Below are positions 1,067-10,255 of a stretch of 11,263 nt of DNA, in pieces. A model generated the notes under the pieces. That model saw only the letters and a list, made by a program, of their open reading frames with translations. It made no database searches and had not been told where the DNA came from. Position 1 is the stretch's first letter; each line of letters starts with the position of its first letter. This DNA is from a virus. Its lineage: Duplodnaviria; Heunggongvirae; Uroviricota; Caudoviricetes. Position numbers and translations under genes: made by a program. The stretch spans positions 1 through 11,263 of IMG/VR virus record IMGVR_UViG_2925914267_000008; one strand, written 5' to 3'.

Positions 1067-1089
1067 GGTAATGACTCCAACTTATTGAT
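1067..1089. repeat. IS1 terminal inverted repeat (insB-proximal end)
   Basis: Matches the canonical IS1 terminus as recalled; it is the imperfect inverted partner of 1812-1834. Confidence 0.85.
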
Positions 1090-1585
1090 AGTGTTTTATG
1101 TTCAGATAATGCCCGATGACTTTGTCATGCAGCTCCACCGATTTTGAGAACGACAGCGACTTCCGTCCCAGCCGTGCCAGGTGCTGCCTCAGATTCAGGT
1201 TATGCCGCTCAATTCGCTGCGTATATCGCTTGCTGATTACGTGCAGCTTTCCCTTCAGGCGGGATTCATACAGCGGCCAGCCATCCGTCATCCATATCAC
1301 CACGTCAAAGGGTGACAGCAGGCTCATAAGACGCCCCAGCGTCGCCATAGTGCGTTCACCGAATACGTGCGCAACAACCGTCTTCCGGAGCCTGTCATAC
1401 GCGTAAAACAGCCAGCGCTGGCGCGATTTAGCCCCGACGTATCCCCACTGTTCGTCCATTTCCGCGCAGACGATGACGTCACTGCCCGGCTGTATGCGCG
1501 AGGTTACCGACTGCGGCCTGAGTTTTTTAAGTGACGTAAAATCGTGTTGAGGCCAACGCCCATAATGCGGGCAGTTGCCCGGCAT
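1082..1585 (-). CDS. insB: IS1 InsB reading frame (expressed as InsAB' by -1 frameshift)
   Basis: The translation ...[70 protein letters not shown]... matches IS1 InsB. It overlaps the insA 3' end in the -1 frame. Confidence 0.85.
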
Positions 1586-1779
1586 CCAACGCCATTCATG
1601 GCCATATCAATGATTTTCTGGTGCGTACCGGGTTGAGAAGCGGTGTAAGTGAACTGCAGTTGCCATGTTTTACGGCAGTGAGAGCAGAGATAGCGCTGAT
1701 GTCCGGCGGTGCTTTTGCCGTTACGCACCACCCCGTCAGTAGCTGAACAGGAGGGACAGCTGATAGAAACAGAAGCCAC
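1504..1779 (-). CDS. insA: IS1 InsA (transposition inhibitor, N-terminal part of InsAB' transposase)
   Basis: The 91-aa translation [43 protein letters not shown]... is the IS1 InsA sequence as I recall it. Confidence 0.9.
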
Positions 1780-1811
1780 TGGAGCACCTCAAAAACACCA
1801 TCATACACTAA

Positions 1812-1834
1812 ATCAGTAAGTTGGCAGCATCACC
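1812..1834. repeat. IS1 terminal inverted repeat (insA-proximal end)
   Basis: Reverse complement reads GGTGATGCTGCCAACTTACTGAT, the canonical IS1 left end. The insA start lies 55 nt inside it. Confidence 0.85.
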
Positions 1835-2907
1835 CGACTTACGGTGAGCTGAAAGTCTGTGTTGACGGAGAATTTCGGGTCAGCACATCGAAGAGTGAAG
1901 GGCGTATTGTCCGCTTTGACCTGAAGTTTGTCGAAGCGGGAGAACTCTCTTACCCCACATCAGGTGCGGCGACGGCGCAGACGCTGATGTCATCCTGTTC
2001 TGCACTGGATGACTGCATCAGTGACAGTTTCAGTAGTTTCAGTATCGATGGCGTGGCAGATTTTGTGCAGAACGATGTCGTCGGTAATGCCAGCACAATG
2101 CTTGGGTATGTTTCTGATGCGATGAAAGTGGTGGATTCTGCCGTATCGGATGCCGCCAGGCTGTTGCAGGGGGATATCTCGGTACTTCTGCCGCCGCCAT
2201 CGTCAGGCAAAAATTTCGTTGAGCAGGTGCAGAAAATGTGGCGTACCGGGAAACGCCTTTATGGTAACGCCAGCGACCTGGTCACCATGATCAAAACGCT
2301 TTCCGGTGTCAGCCTCGGCAGCGATCTGCAACCGCGCGGCGTCTGGAAAACGGACAGTAAAACCACCGCCACGGCGACGCAGCAGCGTAACGTGGTTGCC
2401 AGCACCCTTCGTATGACCGCAATCAGCGAAGCGGCGTATGCCGTTACCCGATTGCCTGCGCCAACAACTTCTGCGGTGATGCAGAATGCCGCAGTGGGGC
2501 AGTCAACAACACCCGCGCAGAGCTCCGGCTGGCCTGCCGTCACGCATCCGGTGCTGAACAATGCACCGGCGGTGAAAAACACGGTTGACCTGCCAACGTG
2601 GGAAGAACTGACCGACATTCGCGACACACTGAATATGGCAATTGATAAGGAGTTGTCCCGTACAACCAGTGATGCGCTGTTTCTGGCGCTGCGCCGGGTG
2701 AAAGCAGATCTGAATGCGGATATCAACACGCGCCTTGAACAGTCTGCTCGGATCATTCAGCGCACGCCGGATGAGGTTTTACCCGCGCTGGTGCTGGCGG
2801 CGACCTGGTTTGATAACGCGGCGCGTGACGCGGACATTATCCGGCGTAATGCCATTACGCATCCCGGCTTTGTGCCGGTGATCCCTCTGAAGGTGCCAGT
2901 GCAATGA
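1835..2907 (+). pseudogene. Mu-type DNA circulation protein (N/gp43-like), 5'-truncated at the IS1 junction
   Basis: Frame 1 is open from the IS1 boundary at 1835 through the stop at 2905-2907. The first ATG is at 1987, with no plausible start or RBS before it. It sits directly upstream of the gp44/P-like gene, as in the Mu order N-P-Q. The family call rests on synteny and general resemblance, not on a search. Confidence 0.55.
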
Positions 2908-3983
2908 ACGACAATGTCACGCTACGGGTAAATGGCCGGGAGTGGAATGGCTGGACATCGGTGCGCATCGGTGCCGGTATTGAACGGCTGGCGCGGGATT
3001 TCAGCGTGGAGATCACCCGCCAGTGGCCGGGAGATGAGGGTATCACCACGCTTCAGCCGCGCATTAAAAATGGTTCAAAAGTGGAAGTGCTGATTGGTGA
3101 TGAGCTGGTGATCACCGGCTGGGTGGAGGCGACCCCCGTTCGTTACGATGCCCGTTCGGTCAGCACCGGTATTGCCGGACGTAGTCTGACTGCTGACCTG
3201 ATTGACTGTGCAGCCGAACCGACACAGTTTAACGGACGATCGCTGGTACAGATTGCGCAGGCGCTTGCTGCGCCTTTCGGCATTGAGGTGGTGAACAACG
3301 GTGCGCAGTCGGGTGTTATTCCTGACGTCCAGCCCGATCACGGTGAAACGGTGATTGAGGTAATCAACAAAATACTCGGTCAGCAGCAGGCACTGGCTTA
3401 CGACGACCCGCACGGCAGGCTGGTGATTGGTGGTATTGGCTCAACGCGGGCACATACTGCGCTGGTACTCGGGGAAAACATCCTTTCCTGCGATACGGAG
3501 AAGAGTATCCGGGAGCGGTTTTCAGTTTACCAGGTGGCGGGGCAGCGTGCCGGAAACGACGATGATTTCGGTGAGGCCACCACCACCGCGCTGCGGGCCC
3601 GCACAGAGGACGCATTTATTGCCCGTTACCGTCCGATGTATATCAGGCAGACAGGGCAGGCTACGGGGGCAGGCTGTATTGCCCGTGCGGACTTTGAAGC
3701 CCGACAACGGGCGGCGCGGACGGATGAAACCACCTATGTGGTGCAGGGCTGGCGACAGGGTAACGGTACGCTGTGGCAGCCCAACCAGCGGGTGATTGTC
3801 TTTGATCCGGTCTGTGGTTTCGACAATACCGAACTGCTTGTTTCGGAAGTCACGTTTACTCAGGACCAGAACGGCACCCTGACGGAAATCCGTGTCGGCC
3901 CGCCTGATGCTTATCTGCCTGAACCCGAAGCCCCCGGCGCGCGGAAAAAGAAAAAAGCCAGAGTACAGGAGGACCCGTTCTGA
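2904..3983 (+). CDS. Mu gp44 (P)-like baseplate hub protein
   Basis: 359-aa ORF whose start overlaps the upstream stop (ATGA at 2904-2907). Size, position and sequence character fit the Mu P/gp44 baseplate family. Confidence 0.75.
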   Translation: MNDNVTLRVNGREWNGWTSVRIGAGIERLARDFSVEITRQWPGDEGITTLQPRIKNGSKVEVLIGDELVITGWVEATPVRYDARSVSTGIAGRSLTADLIDCAAEPTQFNGRSLVQIAQALAAPFGIEVVNNGAQSGVIPDVQPDHGETVIEVINKILGQQQALAYDDPHGRLVIGGIGSTRAHTALVLGENILSCDTEKSIRERFSVYQVAGQRAGNDDDFGEATTTALRARTEDAFIARYRPMYIRQTGQATGAGCIARADFEARQRAARTDETTYVVQGWRQGNGTLWQPNQRVIVFDPVCGFDNTELLVSEVTFTQDQNGTLTEIRVGPPDAYLPEPEAPGARKKKKARVQEDPF

Positions 3984-4531
3984 TGAGGACGATTGAAGCC
4001 ATGCAGCGACAACTCCTCGGCCTGATTGGGCGGGCCGTGGTGAAAAGCATCAGTGCCGCCACGAAATGTCAGACCGTGGATGTGTTCCTGATTGCCGGTG
4101 AACCCAAAGCCGGGGTTGAACATCTTGAACCCTACGGTTTTACCGCAAGGGCAAACAGCGGTGCGGAAGCGGTGGTGTTGTTTCCGGATGGCGACCGTTC
4201 TCATGCGGTGGTTGTTACGGTGTCGGACCGTCGCTACCGCCTGAAAGGGCTGCAGACGGGTGAGGTGGCTGTCTATGACGATCAGGGGCAGTCCGTGACG
4301 CTGACCCGGGAGGGGATCGTGGTGGACGGTGCAGGTAAAACGATCACGTTTCGCAATGCACCTGAAGCACGTTTTGAAATGGACCTAGAAGTGACAGGAC
4401 AGGTGAAAGACCTGTGCGACTCCGGCGGCACCACCATGTCAGCGATGCGGCTTGCCTATAACGGGCATAGTCACAGAGAGAACGGTCAGGGCAGTAACAC
4501 CGACAAACCGGATAAAGCGATGGAGGCATGA
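3983..4531 (+). CDS. Mu gp45-like baseplate spike/assembly protein (gpV-type)
   Basis: 182-aa ORF whose start overlaps the upstream stop (TGATG at 3981-3985). Size and position fit Mu gp45. Confidence 0.75.
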   Translation: MRTIEAMQRQLLGLIGRAVVKSISAATKCQTVDVFLIAGEPKAGVEHLEPYGFTARANSGAEAVVLFPDGDRSHAVVVTVSDRRYRLKGLQTGEVAVYDDQGQSVTLTREGIVVDGAGKTITFRNAPEARFEMDLEVTGQVKDLCDSGGTTMSAMRLAYNGHSHRENGQGSNTDKPDKAMEA

Positions 4532-4956
4532 TGGAACTGTGGCTGACGGTGAACGGTAAACGCACCTGCGCCAGCGCACCGCTGGATCCGCTGACCCGCG
4601 CCGTGGTGATTTCCCTGTTTACCTGGCGGCGGGCGGAGCCTGATGACAACGCCGACGTCCCGATGGGATGGTGGGGGGATACCTGGCCTGCGGTACAGAA
4701 TGACCGTTACGGCTCCCGACTGTGGCTGCTTCAGCGCAGCAAACTGACCAATCAGCTGGTGCAGACGGTAAGGGGGTATATCCGCGAATGCCTGCAATGG
4801 ATGATTGATGATGGCGTGGTGTCCCGTATTGATCTGGATATCCGCCGCACCGGGATTAATGAACTGGGTAACAGTATCACTCTCTGGCGTCGTGACGGAC
4901 CGGTAATGATTTCTTTTGATGATCTGTGGAGTGCGATAACGCATGGCGGACAGTGA
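4528..4956 (+). CDS. Mu gp46-like baseplate protein (GP46 family)
   Basis: 142-aa ORF with ATGA overlap to the upstream gene. Size and synteny fit Mu gp46. Confidence 0.75.
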   Translation: MMELWLTVNGKRTCASAPLDPLTRAVVISLFTWRRAEPDDNADVPMGWWGDTWPAVQNDRYGSRLWLLQRSKLTNQLVQTVRGYIRECLQWMIDDGVVSRIDLDIRRTGINELGNSITLWRRDGPVMISFDDLWSAITHGGQ

Positions 4957-6001
4957 ATTTCAGCGCCCGACGCTGGCAGAAAATATCAGTATGCTCCGTA
5001 ACGATTTATTCGCCAGGCTGGACGTCAGCGACACGCTCCGGCGCATGGATGAAGACGTGCGGGCAAAGGTGTATGCGGCGGCGCTGCATACGGTTTACGG
5101 GTACATCGATTATCTGGCAATGAACATGCTGCCTGACCTGTGCGATGAGTCCTGGCTGGCGCGACATGCTGCGATGAAACGGTGTCCGCGCAAGGGGGCC
5201 ACGGCTGCCAGCGGGTATATGCGCTGGGAAGGTGTCAGCGATGGCCTGAAGGTGACCGCCGGGAGTGTTATTCAGCGCGATGACCTGGTTCAGTACACGG
5301 CAACTGCTGATGCAACCAGCTCCGGTGGTGTCCTGCGCGTGCCGATCACCTGCTCAACTACAGGCGTGGTCGGTAACGCTGACGACGGTACGGCATTAAT
5401 CCTGGTCACGCCGGTGAATGGTCTGCCGTCTTCCGGCGTGGCAGATACACTGACAGGTGGATTTGATACTGAAGAGCTGGAAACGTGGCGCGCCCGCGTC
5501 ATTGAGCGGTATTACTGGACGCCTCAGGGCGGGGCTGACGGGGACTATGTCGTCTGGGCTAAAGAAGTACCCGGCATTACCCGCGCATGGACATACCGAC
5601 ACTGGATGGGAACGGGGACTGTCGGTGTGATGATTGCCAGCAGTGACCTGATTAATCCCATTCCGGAAGAGTCAACGGAAACGGCGGCAAGACAACATAT
5701 CGGGCCACTGGCCCCGGTGGCAGGCTCTGATTTGTATGTATTCAGGCCGGTGGCGCATAAAGTGGATTTTCATATCCGCGTGACGCCGGACACACCGGAA
5801 ATACGGGCTGCCATCACCGCCGAGTTGCGTTCGTTCCTGCTGCGTGATGGTTATCCGCAGGGAGAACTGAAGGTGTCACGTATCAGTGAAGCGATTTCCG
5901 GTACGAACGGGGAATACAGCCATCAGTTGCTTGCCCCGGCGGACAATATCTCCATTGCAAAAAATGAGCTGGCGGTTCTGGGGACGATTTCATGGACGTG
6001 A
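4943..6001 (+). CDS. Mu gp47-like baseplate wedge protein (Baseplate_J family)
   Basis: 352-aa ORF overlapping the previous gene by 14 nt. Size and synteny fit Mu gp47 / P2 gpJ-type proteins. Confidence 0.8.
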
Positions 6002-6576
6002 CAAACGATGATTATATCCGTCTGTTGTCGGCACTGTTGCCGCCCGGTCCGGCGTGGTCAGTCAGCGATCCGGCGATTGCCGGTGCGGCACCGTCATTAA
6101 CCCGCGTTCATCAGCGTGCGGATGCCCTGATGCGGGAGCTGGATCCGCGCACCACCACTGAACTGATAAACCGCTGGGAGCGTCTGTGCGGTCTGCCGGA
6201 TGAATGTATTCCCGCAGGGACACAGACCCTTCGCCAGCGTCAGCAACGGCTGGATGCGAAGGTTAATCTGGCGGGCGGCATCAATGAGGATTTTTATCTT
6301 GCACAGCTTGCTGCCCTGGGCAGACCAGACGCCACTATCACGCGATACGATAAAAGCACGTTCACCTGCTCATCGGCCTGTACTGACGCAGTGAATGCGC
6401 CGGAATGGCGGTATTACTGGCAGGTCAACATGCCAGCCGCCACCAACACCACCTGGATGACATGTGGCGATCCCTGTGATTCCGCACTGCGTATCTGGGG
6501 CGACACCGTTGTCGAGTGCGTGCTTAACAAACTCTGCCCTTCGCATACCTACGTAATTTTTAAATATCCGGAGTAA
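5992..6576 (+). CDS. Mu gp48-like tail protein (DUF2313 / YmfQ-like)
   Basis: 194-aa ORF overlapping the previous gene by 10 nt. It resembles the YmfQ/gp48 family found just upstream of tail-fibre genes in Mu-like and e14-like tails. Confidence 0.75.
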
Positions 6577-6579
6577 TCC

Positions 6580-7092
6580 ATGCATCGTATAGACACGAAA
6601 ACCGCGCAGAAGGATAAGTTCGGCGCGGGTAAGAACGGTTTTACCCGTGGTAACCCCCAGACCGGCACACCTGCCACCGATCTGGATGATGACTACTTTG
6701 ACATGTTGCAGGAAGAACTTTGTAGCGTTGTTGAGGCATCCGGTGCCAGTCTGGAGAAGGCGCGGCACGACCAGCTGCTTACCGCACTTCGTGCGCTGCT
6801 GTTAAGCCGCAAGAATCCGTTTGGCGATATCAAATCGGATGGCACTGTGCAAACGGCTCTCGAAAACCTTCAATTGCGAGAATCATTCACAGGTGTGGTT
6901 GGTCAGGCCGTTAACCAGAAAATGAGCGTGGCAATAGCGTCGGCATCAGCAACATTCACCGCTGACCAGGTTATTGTTGGTGAGTCATTATCTGGCAAGC
7001 AGTACCGTGTAAGTTCGGTAAGCGAAACTATCAACCTCACCACGACTGGGGCGGGCGGGATGGATACAGGAGCAGCCCCTGCCAGTGGTTGA
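6580..7092 (+). CDS. Phage tail fibre protein, N-terminal part, ending at an in-frame TGA
   Basis: The start [47 protein letters not shown] is a conserved tail-fibre N-terminus. The ATG is 4 nt after the gp48-like stop, with GGAG upstream. The frame ends at TGA 7090-7092. Confidence 0.7.
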
Positions 7093-7626
7093 GTTGCTAT
7101 TTACCTTATTTACAACCCAACGACCAACACCTCAGCATTACTTGGTGTTAACACGACAACCGTCGTTGCGCCCACAGTCTACGGCGGTGCAAACATGCCA
7201 GCGGGATATACGGCGAGCGCACTCGTATCCGTCTGGAGAACAACAAGCGGCTCTTTGCTTCTGAATGGGTACCAGCGAGGTCGAAAATTTTGCATCCCGC
7301 GTGTAGATGTACTGACCACAAGCAGTAACCCAGGACCATACTCACCAATCCCTCTTAGCGCAGCCGTACCGCTAAACGCTATAGCAGCGAGTGGTTACGC
7401 ATTCTGTAACTCAGGCTCTGGTTCTGGGTTTGCGGTTTTGTCTGTCGGGTCTGATGCAAATGGGCTTGGGTATTTTCAGGTGTATGCCGGGCTGGTTGGT
7501 TCGCTAGGGAGCGATATCTATTTTGAGAATACCCTCGCTGAACCTCAAAAACTTTACTACACGTTTACCTGGACAACGCCAGCAGTGTCAAATGCCACCA
7601 TTGGGATAAGCGGTTATACGATCTAA
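7093..7626 (+). pseudogene. Tail fibre distal part, in the same frame as 6580..7092 across one TGA
   Basis: Same frame as the upstream tail-fibre ORF, with no further stop from 7093 to 7626. The 34 codons between the TGA and the first ATG (7195) read as Thr/Asn/Ser/Val/Gly-rich, fibre-like sequence, and there is no RBS ahead of 7195. Confidence 0.45.
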
Positions 7627-7636
7627 GGAGTGAATT

Positions 7637-7804
7637 ATGTCTGTTGTATATGTGCAGTTCTCTGATGAGAAAGAAACAGAAATTGTCTCTGTTTTTGCAT
7701 CTCCGGCCGACCCGGATTACTACCAGTTTTTGGGGGAGGTAGAGGGGGATGATGAGCGGCTTAAAATCTTTTGGAAGCAATTCCCTCAGCATGCCGTAGG
7801 TTGA
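7637..7804 (+). CDS. Hypothetical small protein (55 aa), not in the ORF track
   Basis: ATG at 7637 is preceded by AAGGAG at 7625-7630 with 6-nt spacing. Translation: MSVVYVQFSDEKETEIVSVFASPADPDYYQFLGEVEGDDERLKIFWKQFPQHAVG. It sits directly after the tail fibre, where assembly chaperones or cargo genes usually lie. I do not recognise a family. Confidence 0.4.
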   Translation: MSVVYVQFSDEKETEIVSVFASPADPDYYQFLGEVEGDDERLKIFWKQFPQHAVG

Positions 7805-7994
7805 TTGGATAATAAGTCGCTAGGTGAGAACTGGCGGATAATTTTTCTAGATAAGTTTTTAGCAACCAGCATTCCTGTTTTTTATATCCAGGATTTTGGT
7901 TTACAGTACTTATTTTTAACTGTATTGAGGATGGCGAAAACAGATTGAAAATTACATCCAGATCACCCAATCGATAATCAACCATTATAAAAAA

Positions 7995-8014
7995 GGCTCC
8001 CTTTTTAGGGAGCC
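7995..8014. terminator. Intrinsic terminator hairpin between convergent genes
   Basis: Perfect 8-bp stem GGCTCCCT / AGGGAGCC with a TTTT loop. On the minus strand it is followed by TTTTTTATAA, 9 nt downstream of the acyltransferase stop. On the plus strand it is preceded by an A-run, with only a weak T-tract after it. Confidence 0.65.
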
Positions 8015-8022
8015 TTGTGTGG

Positions 8023-9273
8023 TTATATTTTTGCTTTGCTGATAAAATTATCTAGGGTTTTTCCTACGGTGCGGCTAAGTATCACTGATTTTTTCTCTAT
8101 TAATTGATAAAATATCATTGAACCAATTAAAGAAAGAGTGACGAATACTAAAAAGGAAGCAATGTATGCTAAATAAACGTTATTTGTATGAATATATACA
8201 TATAGGTTTATTGGCATTATTGCAGATGAAAGAACTAACCAGTGAACAAGGTATAAAGAGAAAGAAATTTTCCCAAAAAATTGAACAAGTTTAGTGGATA
8301 GGAAATCGCGAATGTATCCTCTGGACATTACTAGAATTAGCAATAATATTGCACCGACACCACGTAAAAACTCGTATGGGTGGTAAGGGAACATCCCAGG
8401 AATCGATAAGTCTTGCATGTTTATTAATGGGGCAACAAAATAGTTCCCTGGTATAAAAATCCAACCCCAGGGATAGAATACCGGGCAACTTTGAAGTATC
8501 ACTATAGCTAATATCATTAGCAAAGTAATAACGTATTTTTCTTTGTTGTTAAATAAATTGCTTGTTTTTTCGTCGGCAAACAAGATGGATATCCATGCGC
8601 CAATGAGAAGAAAAAACACATAATATCCGTAACTAAAGATAGTAAATAAAAATAATAAAAGAATGCCATGCCTTGAGTTATTTCTTCCTACCTGAGCAAC
8701 AATTAATAGTAACAGCGAGCCCATAAACTCAGTCGACATTGACCATATTACAGGGTTAAGAAATCTAGTTGAAAAATCTGTGGTATATAGCGTAAGAATG
8801 CCTTGCTTTATTACTTCATCGAAAGCTACATTTTCATCGTGATCATAACGAAATCCAGATTTTACTAAGATATATCCAATAATACAGGAAGCAAATACAG
8901 GAACACCAAGTCGAATAAAACGACGTATTAATGATGCTATAAATGTTGTATTTGCTTTGAAGGCGCCAAGAAGAATTGCGCCAGATAAGATGAAAAAAAC
9001 TATAGTAGCAAAATTACCATTGATAGTGAATACGAATGGTGTCGTTTCAGTAAATTCGTAGAATTTTGAAAGCCAATAAGGGAATGCATCTGGGTAGTGT
9101 GAAAGCATAAAAAGCTTTGTTTCACCAAAAAAATGACCATAAGCAACAATTATAGCCATTAGTCCGCGTAACCCATCAAAATATAGGATTCTGTTCTTTT
9201 TTTGTTCCAATTTATTGAACCTCATCATTTCAAAATAGTGAGCAATGATAGTGTTAAGAGTGTAGTAAAGCAA
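8023..9273 (-). CDS. Acyltransferase family 3 integral membrane protein (Oac/OafA-like O-acetyltransferase candidate)
   Basis: The N-terminal motif RILYFDGLRGLMAIIVAYGHFFGE and the later FFILSGAIL segment are typical of the acyltransferase-3 family. The protein is very hydrophobic with many predicted helices. The gene is AT-rich (roughly 30% GC) against GC-rich neighbours. The start is uncertain: TTG at 9273 with GAAGG upstream, or ATG at 9228 or 9225. Confidence 0.85.
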   Translation of the reverse strand: MLYYTLNTIIAHYFEMMRFNKLEQKKNRILYFDGLRGLMAIIVAYGHFFGETKLFMLSHYPDAFPYWLSKFYEFTETTPFVFTINGNFATIVFFILSGAILLGAFKANTTFIASLIRRFIRLGVPVFASCIIGYILVKSGFRYDHDENVAFDEVIKQGILTLYTTDFSTRFLNPVIWSMSTEFMGSLLLLIVAQVGRNNSRHGILLLFLFTIFSYGYYVFFLLIGAWISILFADEKTSNLFNNKEKYVITLLMILAIVILQSCPVFYPWGWIFIPGNYFVAPLINMQDLSIPGMFPYHPYEFLRGVGAILLLILVMSRGYIRDFLSTKLVQFFGKISFSLYLVHWLVLSSAIMPINLYVYIHTNNVYLAYIASFLVFVTLSLIGSMIFYQLIEKKSVILSRTVGKTLDNFISKAKI

Positions 9274-9396
9274 TGCCTTCTGGAATCGAAGTTAAAACAA
9301 CGGAGCTTAAATTAGTTGAAGTGAGATTTGCTAATAAAGGTAATAAATTCAATCAATTACTTCTTGAGGGCGTATTGGTGTTAAGAAGATTTTAAC

Positions 9397-9405
9397 ATTG
9401 TATCA
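9397..9405 (-). promoter_or_regulatory. Possible extended -10 element (TGATACAAT on minus strand) upstream of the acyltransferase
   Basis: TGnTACAAT motif about 125 nt upstream of the acyltransferase start in AT-rich DNA. No clear -35. This is a sequence-pattern guess only. Confidence 0.2.
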
Positions 9406-10232
9406 CATACCACGGGGGCATTCTGATGAAATCAGAAAAATAGACAGGGTAATAGCTATCGATTGATGATGGTGGTTGCTATGCTTCATATAGAGTTTCC
9501 GATACTATCACGCACATTATTAATGATAGCAGAACGGTGGAGTTTAATGGTTGGCCAAGCCTTGTTGAACAATGGTTAATCATGCTGTTTTAATATACCT
9601 TCTTTGGAGAAAAATGCTAACAACTCCAACGTGCATTGCCCGAGATTGGCTGTAACCATAATAATTTTATGGAGTTTATTGAATAAACCCGAGTTAGTAG
9701 ACAGGATGACGCCTACCGGAACACCCGTTATGCGATGCGGACGCTGTCCGGCATACCCAGCACGGTCATCCGGTTTAGCGCTTTGACCATCGCCGTTTCT
9801 GCCACTGAACGACGGTGATAACCCACTTTCTTTTTCCAAACATAATTGCTGGATAGGGTCAGGGTTATTATGATGCTTGGAATTATCGAACGCTGCCGCA
9901 GAATGTTAGAGAACGGAGCAATCCGGCAACGTGATCGGTGTGGGGGTAAAGACGATTTATAAATACTTTCCTGTCACAAGTCCAGCGCGTAATGCCAGTT
10001 CCCGAGTGTAGGTATGATCATGAAAAAGTGGTGCGCACCTAAATATCTTTAATACAGGCGTAGGATGCCATGCATTAGGATCGGGTTAAACAGGGATGTT
10101 TACGTTCTGGAAAACTGCCCGCAGATAGCCGGCGTGATCTAGAATGATTTTTGTGTACATATATGTGTACTGTACAAAAGAAGATTTGGCTTTTAATTTC
10201 AATAAAAACAATAAATTGAATTGTTTTTAAAA

Positions 10233-10255
10233 TATATCCATTTAACTAAGAGGAC
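10233..10255 (-). tRNA. argW: tRNA-Arg (argW) 5' fragment, first 23 nt only
   Basis: The minus strand reads GTCCTCTTAGTTAAATGGATATA, identical to the first 23 nt of E. coli argW as I recall it, and lies 75 nt downstream of yfdC as expected. The next bases (TTTTAAAAACAATTC...) are AT-rich and cannot form the rest of a tRNA. Confidence 0.55.

Follow-up and report, generated by a model that had tools for sequence, protein, structure and literature searches.

Does the single TGA that interrupts the tail-fibre reading frame of this locus reflect ordinary gene decay, an error in the sequence, a stop codon that is meant to leak, or the boundary between two working genes? The window, by which we mean the whole 11,263-nucleotide stretch of DNA that was analysed, carries two tail-fibre ORFs that lie in the same frame and are parted by this one codon, as described in an earlier sequence-only reading. 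Their coordinates were confirmed, with 177 sense codons and a terminal TAA following the stop. We conclude with little doubt that the locus is an ordinary opal nonsense pseudogene, in which the substitution G7092A converted Trp171 to TGA in a decaying SfV/Mu-like myovirus prophage located at the argW-yfdC site of E. coli. The features on which this conclusion rests are collected in Table 1.

Table 1. Features of the window around the interrupted tail-fibre gene, in order of position.
Feature	Position	Strand	Basis
Truncated tyrosine integrase gene, 356 codons	1..1071	+	Pfam Arm-DNA-bind_3 and partial Phage_integrase (profile positions 2-145 of 172)
IS1, complete, 768 bp, insA and insB	1068..1835	-	Pfam DDE_Tnp_IS1, HTH_Tnp_IS1, Zn_ribbon_InsA
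5′-truncated DNA-circularisation/baseplate-hub gene, first ~86 codons gone	1836..2907	+	PHROG matches: DNA circularisation, baseplate hub
Mu-like baseplate genes gpP/gp44, gp45, gp46, gp47/J and gp48, intact, directly upstream of the fibre gene	2904..6576	+	Pfam GpP, Mu_Gp45, GP46, Baseplate_J, Mu_Gp48; E. coli annotation
Ancestral tail-fibre gene, 348 codons	6580..7626	+	Homology to BcepMu gp52 and Yersinia phage fibres that runs unbroken through the stop
Truncated 5′ ORF, 170 aa, expected product if translation terminates at the opal codon	6580..7092	+	
Opal codon TGA in place of Trp171 (TGG); G7092A; next base G	7090..7092	+	
Downstream in-frame remainder, 177 sense codons and TAA (7624-7626), most of the β-rich distal region	7093..7626	+	
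143-aa ORF from the first in-frame ATG past the stop; not an independent gene	7195..7626	+	
55-aa ORF (orf55) with a strong AAGGAG Shine-Dalgarno motif	7637..7804	+	phrog_20339, function-unassigned family
Acyl_transf_3 acyltransferase gene, intact, 33% GC	8023..9210	-	Pfam
argW 5′ fragment of tRNA-Arg(CCU), 23 nt, right prophage-chromosome junction, adjoining yfdC	10233..10255	-	Alignment with L010

The fibre gene begins at an ATG preceded by a GGAG Shine-Dalgarno motif. Downstream of the TGA its frame is open between 7093 and 7623, and each of the other frames contains 7 stops over the same interval. Only 41 of 200,000 mononucleotide shuffles left the fibre frame open from 7093 to 7623, so the open downstream frame is coding sequence and not a product of chance. 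Two parts can be recognized in the complete reading frame: residues 1 to ~100 constitute an SfV/Mu-like N-terminal attachment region, and residues ~100-348 an exchangeable, all-β distal cassette.

The distal half of the gene had no match in 5,426 complete E. coli genomes (megablast with 5900-7900 and blastn with 6880-7900), and the intact allele was therefore located through a protein collection. A cluster look-up retrieved a 348-aa protein (P0144) that equals the read-through translation of the window at every residue and has Trp at codon 171. At least 24 contigs encode it, each at the argW-yfdC site, upstream of the acyltransferase gene and yfdC-mlaA. A second 348-aa protein (P0001), found by searching a large protein collection, is 99% identical over the whole read-through translation. 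At the nucleotide level, TGG stands at the equivalent of 7090-7092 in eight related loci (L011, L013, L014 and L016-L020). The nearest intact loci among them are L013, L017 and L020. Their alignments with the window span 6-9.4 kb and show 5 differing positions; within the fibre gene only base 7092 differs, with G in these loci and A in the window. Since no other base of the fibre gene separates the two alleles, the event is a single G-to-A transition from TGG (Trp171) to TGA.

More distant relatives lead to the same ancestral state. Among 42 full-length homologues the column of codon 171 holds only aromatic residues (27 Phe, 8 Tyr and 7 Trp), and when the 15 best matches were aligned, Trp was found in the 12 closest and Phe in the three most distant. 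The homologue alignment that the sequence-only reading had proposed thus returned a sense codon throughout, and the finding that would have spoken against a mutation, a natural end of homologous fibres at the equivalent position, was seen in none of the 42. The downstream codons, which had been described as fibre-like, are indeed continuous with the upstream part in P0144 and in the other homologues. The PHROG tail-fibre family phrog_11518 gives one continuous match over residues 86-347, and residues 1-110 have PHROG tail-fibre matches as well. Finally, blastn of the distal half against phage genomes recovered BcepMu gp52 and Yersinia phage fibre genes in alignments that cross the stop: the translations of these genes read ...GGMDTGTAPASG-F-VAIYAIYNPT... 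where the window has the stop followed by VAIYLIYNPT. With a sense codon one step away in the intact alleles and both flanks colinear with one uninterrupted protein, the two ORFs are, by homology, halves of one 348-aa tail-fibre gene.

This gene lies directly after baseplate genes of the Mu gp44-gp48 type, its N-terminus matches tail-fibre families, and the DNA up to about 6880 is 96-98% identical to SfV-type prophages, which places its product among the fibres of SfV/Mu-like myoviruses. Its nearest relatives are not the same on the two sides of a sharp module junction at about 6870-6885 (codons 97-103). Upstream of the junction, SfV-type prophages of about 1,800 E. coli genomes match the window at 96-99% DNA identity. 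The Shigella phages SfV, SfI, SfII and SfIV, whose tail fibre is annotated as 'short tail fiber' (orf21), share 96-97% DNA identity in the upstream baseplate genes and the first ~100 codons. However, the similarity to the SfV type stops near 6870-6882, and the distal cassette of the window, which holds the TGA, is unrelated to that of SfV. The homologous cassette occurs instead in BcepMu (gp52) and in Yersinia phage vB_YenM_06.16-1 and its relatives, where the C-terminal ~250 residues are colinear with those of the window and both match phrog_11518. The GxVAxYxIYNP motif that holds the mutated codon is common to the window, BcepMu gp52 and the Yersinia phage fibres. The BcepMu and Yersinia genes are uninterrupted, with Phe at the site, and their N-terminal parts are different and longer (BcepMu gp52 has 786 aa). 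In the protein collection, the distal cassette was also found behind at least 4 other unrelated N-terminal fibre modules, always joined at the same short protein stretch. This junction looks, from the distribution of the modules, like a recombination hotspot for host-range cassettes.

A difference of one base from a common intact allele could be a sequencing or assembly error over a genomic TGG, one of the possibilities raised by the sequence-only reading. However, TGA is present at the homologous position of L003-L009 and L022-L025, that is on at least 11 contigs besides the TGG loci; these stem from different isolates and metagenome studies that were assembled independently, and the change is a substitution and not a homopolymer indel. 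The probability of an error is therefore negligible. The identical 170-aa ORF is found on 7 contigs (three NCBI isolate assemblies and four ENA metagenome assemblies), and single-residue variants of it (P0130 and P0131) on 5 more contigs from other metagenome projects. In all, the intact allele is carried by at least 24 contigs versus about 12 for the TGA allele. The recurrence of the TGA allele on contigs from several isolate and metagenome projects shows that a group of closely related E. coli inherits it.

The TGA allele is linked to several upstream haplotypes. It is possible that the allele has persisted through recombination in the conserved baseplate and N-terminal region, or that some of the metagenome contigs are chimeric. 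Four TGA-bearing metagenome contigs (L022-L025) have, at the equivalent of 6669-6786 in the N-terminal part of the fibre gene, a block of 12-13 substitutions that are absent from the window; they include the replacement of Ala61 by Gly or Trp. The block could stem from an exchange with another SfV-like prophage or from metagenome contigs that were assembled as chimeras. All TGA-bearing contigs except the window break within the baseplate region. The assemblies GCA_049979185.1 and GCA_049979945.1 are among the carriers of the TGA.

In one TGA-bearing assembly (GCA_049983065.1; L005, 3735-3811), the contig end is an IS1 terminus that abuts the equivalent of window position 9094, within the acyltransferase gene. 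This suggests an extra IS1 copy or a rearrangement in that strain.

The consequence of the stop for the protein was considered on an AlphaFold2 model. The model was calculated for the monomer from the 42-sequence alignment, and the protein is probably trimeric. The mean pLDDT is 82, with values above 90 over most of residues 105-348. This region is modelled as all-β, and the N-terminal 100 residues are helical or disordered. Residue 171 opens the strand E170-179, and three of the sixteen predicted strands precede it. Translation would normally end at the TGA, giving a 170-aa fragment that would keep the N-terminal baseplate-attachment region and only the first ~3 strands of the β-rich region. 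According to the model, such a fragment could not form the distal, presumably receptor-binding, part of the fibre, most of which it would likely lack. Because the stop falls within one functional unit and not between units, we infer that the 170-aa product would not work as a fibre.

The position of the stop in the model also bears on the idea that the two ORFs are working genes, a 170-aa N-terminal adaptor and a C-terminal piece initiated at ATG 7195, whose products assemble together. Gene callers annotate both ORFs in public assemblies, the second as a 143-aa product from ATG 7195 (P0145, on 12 contigs), and GGCGGTG stands five bases 5′ of this ATG. However, the 143-aa ORF aligns with residues 206-348 of the intact fibre, and no in-frame ATG, GTG or TTG occurs between the TGA and ATG 7195, so that residues 171-205 would be lost altogether. 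Moreover, the break and the restart would both fall in one predicted β domain, and none of the homologues is organised in this way. The second ORF had been said to have no ribosome-binding site of its own. This needs some qualification, as GGCGGTG is weakly Shine-Dalgarno-like, but the claim holds insofar as the same bases merely encode part of the conserved YGGANM motif. We regard two cooperating genes as extremely unlikely.

A further alternative is that the TGA is a functional leaky stop, decoded by Trp-tRNATrp at a low but useful level, which would produce a 170-aa short and a 348-aa long fibre. Several observations are in its favour. UGA is the leakiest stop codon of E. coli and its readthrough would put back the ancestral residue; the allele, found in several haplotypes, is inherited; and the downstream frame is intact. 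A known precedent is phage Qbeta, in which programmed UGA readthrough by Trp-tRNATrp extends the coat protein into A1. The window resembles it in having a UGA in a phage structural gene with an open in-frame extension after it. In Qbeta the stop is conserved and comes after a complete coat domain, and the phage needs both products, whereas the stop of the window is a rare allele in mid-domain; the fibre is thus not a member of the Qbeta class.

The context of the codon also argues against programmed readthrough. The stop is unconserved (0 of the 42 homologues have it, and the allele that is otherwise identical has a sense codon on at least 24 contigs), and it is placed within a predicted β-strand of a folded domain and not at a domain boundary. 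No stable RNA structure was found 3′ of the UGA: the minimum free energy of 7090-7150 is -8.2 kcal/mol, which 25 of 200 shuffles also reach (z = -1.09). An Rfam search returned nothing relevant. The G that follows the stop is reportedly not the weakest UGA context. Readthrough in E. coli reflects a competition between Trp-tRNATrp and RF2 (PMC10570021). In bacteria it is an uncommon event, and extended NudL and PheL have been observed only where RF2 was the defective K-12 variant (PMC5373646). On this evidence a natural stop with readthrough into long and short forms, which the sequence-only reading had offered as an alternative, is very unlikely.

Three other origins for the codon were considered and rejected. 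For selenocysteine recoding, neither a significant hairpin nor an Rfam match was found, and the 42 aligned homologues have F, Y or W at this position but never C. A UGA-reassigned code (table 4 or 25) or a phage suppressor does not agree with codon usage in the window, where TGA terminates five complete neighbouring genes and the truncated hub gene and Trp is encoded 51 times by TGG; the TGA at 7090-7092 is the only internal one in the 10 genes examined, and no tRNA genes were found in the window. Finally, an origin through a diversity-generating retroelement was dismissed, since the change is a G to A that does not affect a template adenine and since no reverse transcriptase is encoded in the window.

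The remaining part of the question concerns the prophage itself, which the sequence-only reading had taken to be decaying. In the window it is an IS1-truncated remnant. The integrase gene has 85% DNA identity to full-length relatives up to about position 1029. In comparison with a 388-aa relative, ~45 C-terminal residues are missing, a part that we take to include the catalytic tyrosine, and the last 13 residues are unrelated to those of full-length relatives. Some 39 nt of unexplained sequence (about 1029-1067) separate the end of the integrase homology from IS1. No target-site duplication was found at IS1, the 9-bp flanks at 1059-1067 and 1836-1844 being different, and the element therefore marks a rearrangement or deletion junction and not a simple insertion. 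On its other side, homology of the hub gene to L013 begins at position 5257 of that locus, within a 442-aa DNA_circ_N gene at 5000-6328. Upstream, the intact relatives have genes for sheath, tube, chaperone and tape measure and a complete hub gene, and a prophage with a related integrase at the argW-yfdC site measures 46 kb. In contrast, the element of the window is ~10 kb long and comprises int′, IS1, ′hub, five baseplate genes, the fibre gene, orf55, the acyltransferase gene and ~1 kb without ORFs; head, sheath, tube and tape-measure genes are absent from it. This architecture implies an IS1-associated deletion that would have taken most of the prophage, namely its early, lysis, head, sheath, tube and tape-measure genes.

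The ends of the element could also be placed. Another locus (L021) has the int′::IS1 junction with no difference from the window over 1,552 bases, and there it directly adjoins dsdC and tRNA-Arg(CCU). In this locus an intact argW is found on the far side of the integrase (L021, 5731-5805). Since only the 5′ 23 nt of the tRNA gene stand beside yfdC, the integrase type of the window interrupts argW within the 5′ half and brings a new 5′ part with it, unlike IntS-type prophages, which insert at the 3′ end of argW (L010).

Defective prophages with truncated or interrupted tail-fibre genes are known in E. coli, for instance e14, CPS-53/KpLE1 and Rac. As in these elements, a structural gene has been disabled by a point mutation in an integrated and partly deleted prophage; in the window the deletion is IS-associated. 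CPS-53 of K-12 even occupies the same argW-yfdC locus, and the intS-argW-yfdC arrangement was seen in another strain. However, the window differs from CPS-53 in its integrase, which shares ~85% identity with an integrase that restores argW at the left end, and in its fibre cassette.

Judging from its gene content, the remnant in this strain cannot build a virion, so the fibre gene would be free to decay. The absence of head and tail-tube genes likewise weighs against a useful leaky stop, as there would be nothing for the fibre to attach to. The other TGA-bearing contigs end in the baseplate region, and for this reason the TGA may have arisen before or after the IS1 deletion and some carriers might keep a complete prophage. 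The explanation preferred in the sequence-only reading, a nonsense mutation in a decaying prophage, is thus supported by both the intact TGG allele and the state of the surrounding element.

The five baseplate genes at 2904..6576 contain no internal stops, and the two changes that are private to the window in the acyltransferase gene, at 8071 and 8677, are both synonymous. The acyltransferase is probably a lysogenic-conversion gene for the acylation of surface polysaccharide. BcepMu has an analogous layout, a fibre gene followed by an opposite-strand acyltransferase gene. A fibre and acyltransferase module shared with BcepMu gp52/gp53 was nevertheless rejected, since the two acyltransferases are not detectably similar (E = 0.55); the likeness is one of layout only. 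orf55 adjoins the fibre gene in all related loci and may encode a fibre accessory protein or chaperone. The Yersinia phage fibre gene is likewise followed by a small ORF, of 68 aa.

Between the acyltransferase gene and argW lies a stretch of ~960 bp (9274-10232) with 41% GC and no ORF longer than 87 aa, which is kept in all related loci. No match to phage genomes was found for 7627-10232, and in complete E. coli genomes 9274-10232 gave only a match of 56-70 nt. The stretch may represent what is left of a gene, or else a regulatory or att-proximal region.

Inactivation of the fibre gene may not be absolute. Basal readthrough of the UGA by Trp-tRNATrp would restore the exact wild-type protein at a low level; since this tRNA decodes a leaking UGA, any leaked product would be authentic fibre. 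One may extend this to a mostly-off 'standby' state, in which an opal codon at a Trp position leaks small amounts of authentic fibre under low RF2 activity or high tRNATrp, a proposal that we consider a long shot. The several upstream haplotypes that carry the TGA are compatible with the recombinational traffic it supposes. If it were true, a single A-to-G reversion could bring the gene back, as could its recombination into co-resident SfV-like phages with the same upstream baseplate and N-terminal sequence, and the cassette would be a reservoir of host-range modules rather than dead DNA.

Under the preferred reading, a nonsense pseudogene in a prophage remnant, the 177 codons downstream of the TGA would still be open only because the mutation is recent, as the more than 99.9% identity of the flanking DNA to the intact alleles indicates. 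We infer that the gene is now a pseudogene under no selection for phage function. This is ordinary gene decay that involves no special decoding, and it opens no new mechanism or question. No pseudogene annotation of the mutation was apparent in the public records examined. Annotations should unite the 170-aa and 143-aa ORFs in a single entry, marked as a tail-fibre pseudogene, and should label the argW-yfdC element a prophage remnant. The acyltransferase gene kept intact while the virion genes decay corresponds to the usual pattern of prophage domestication.
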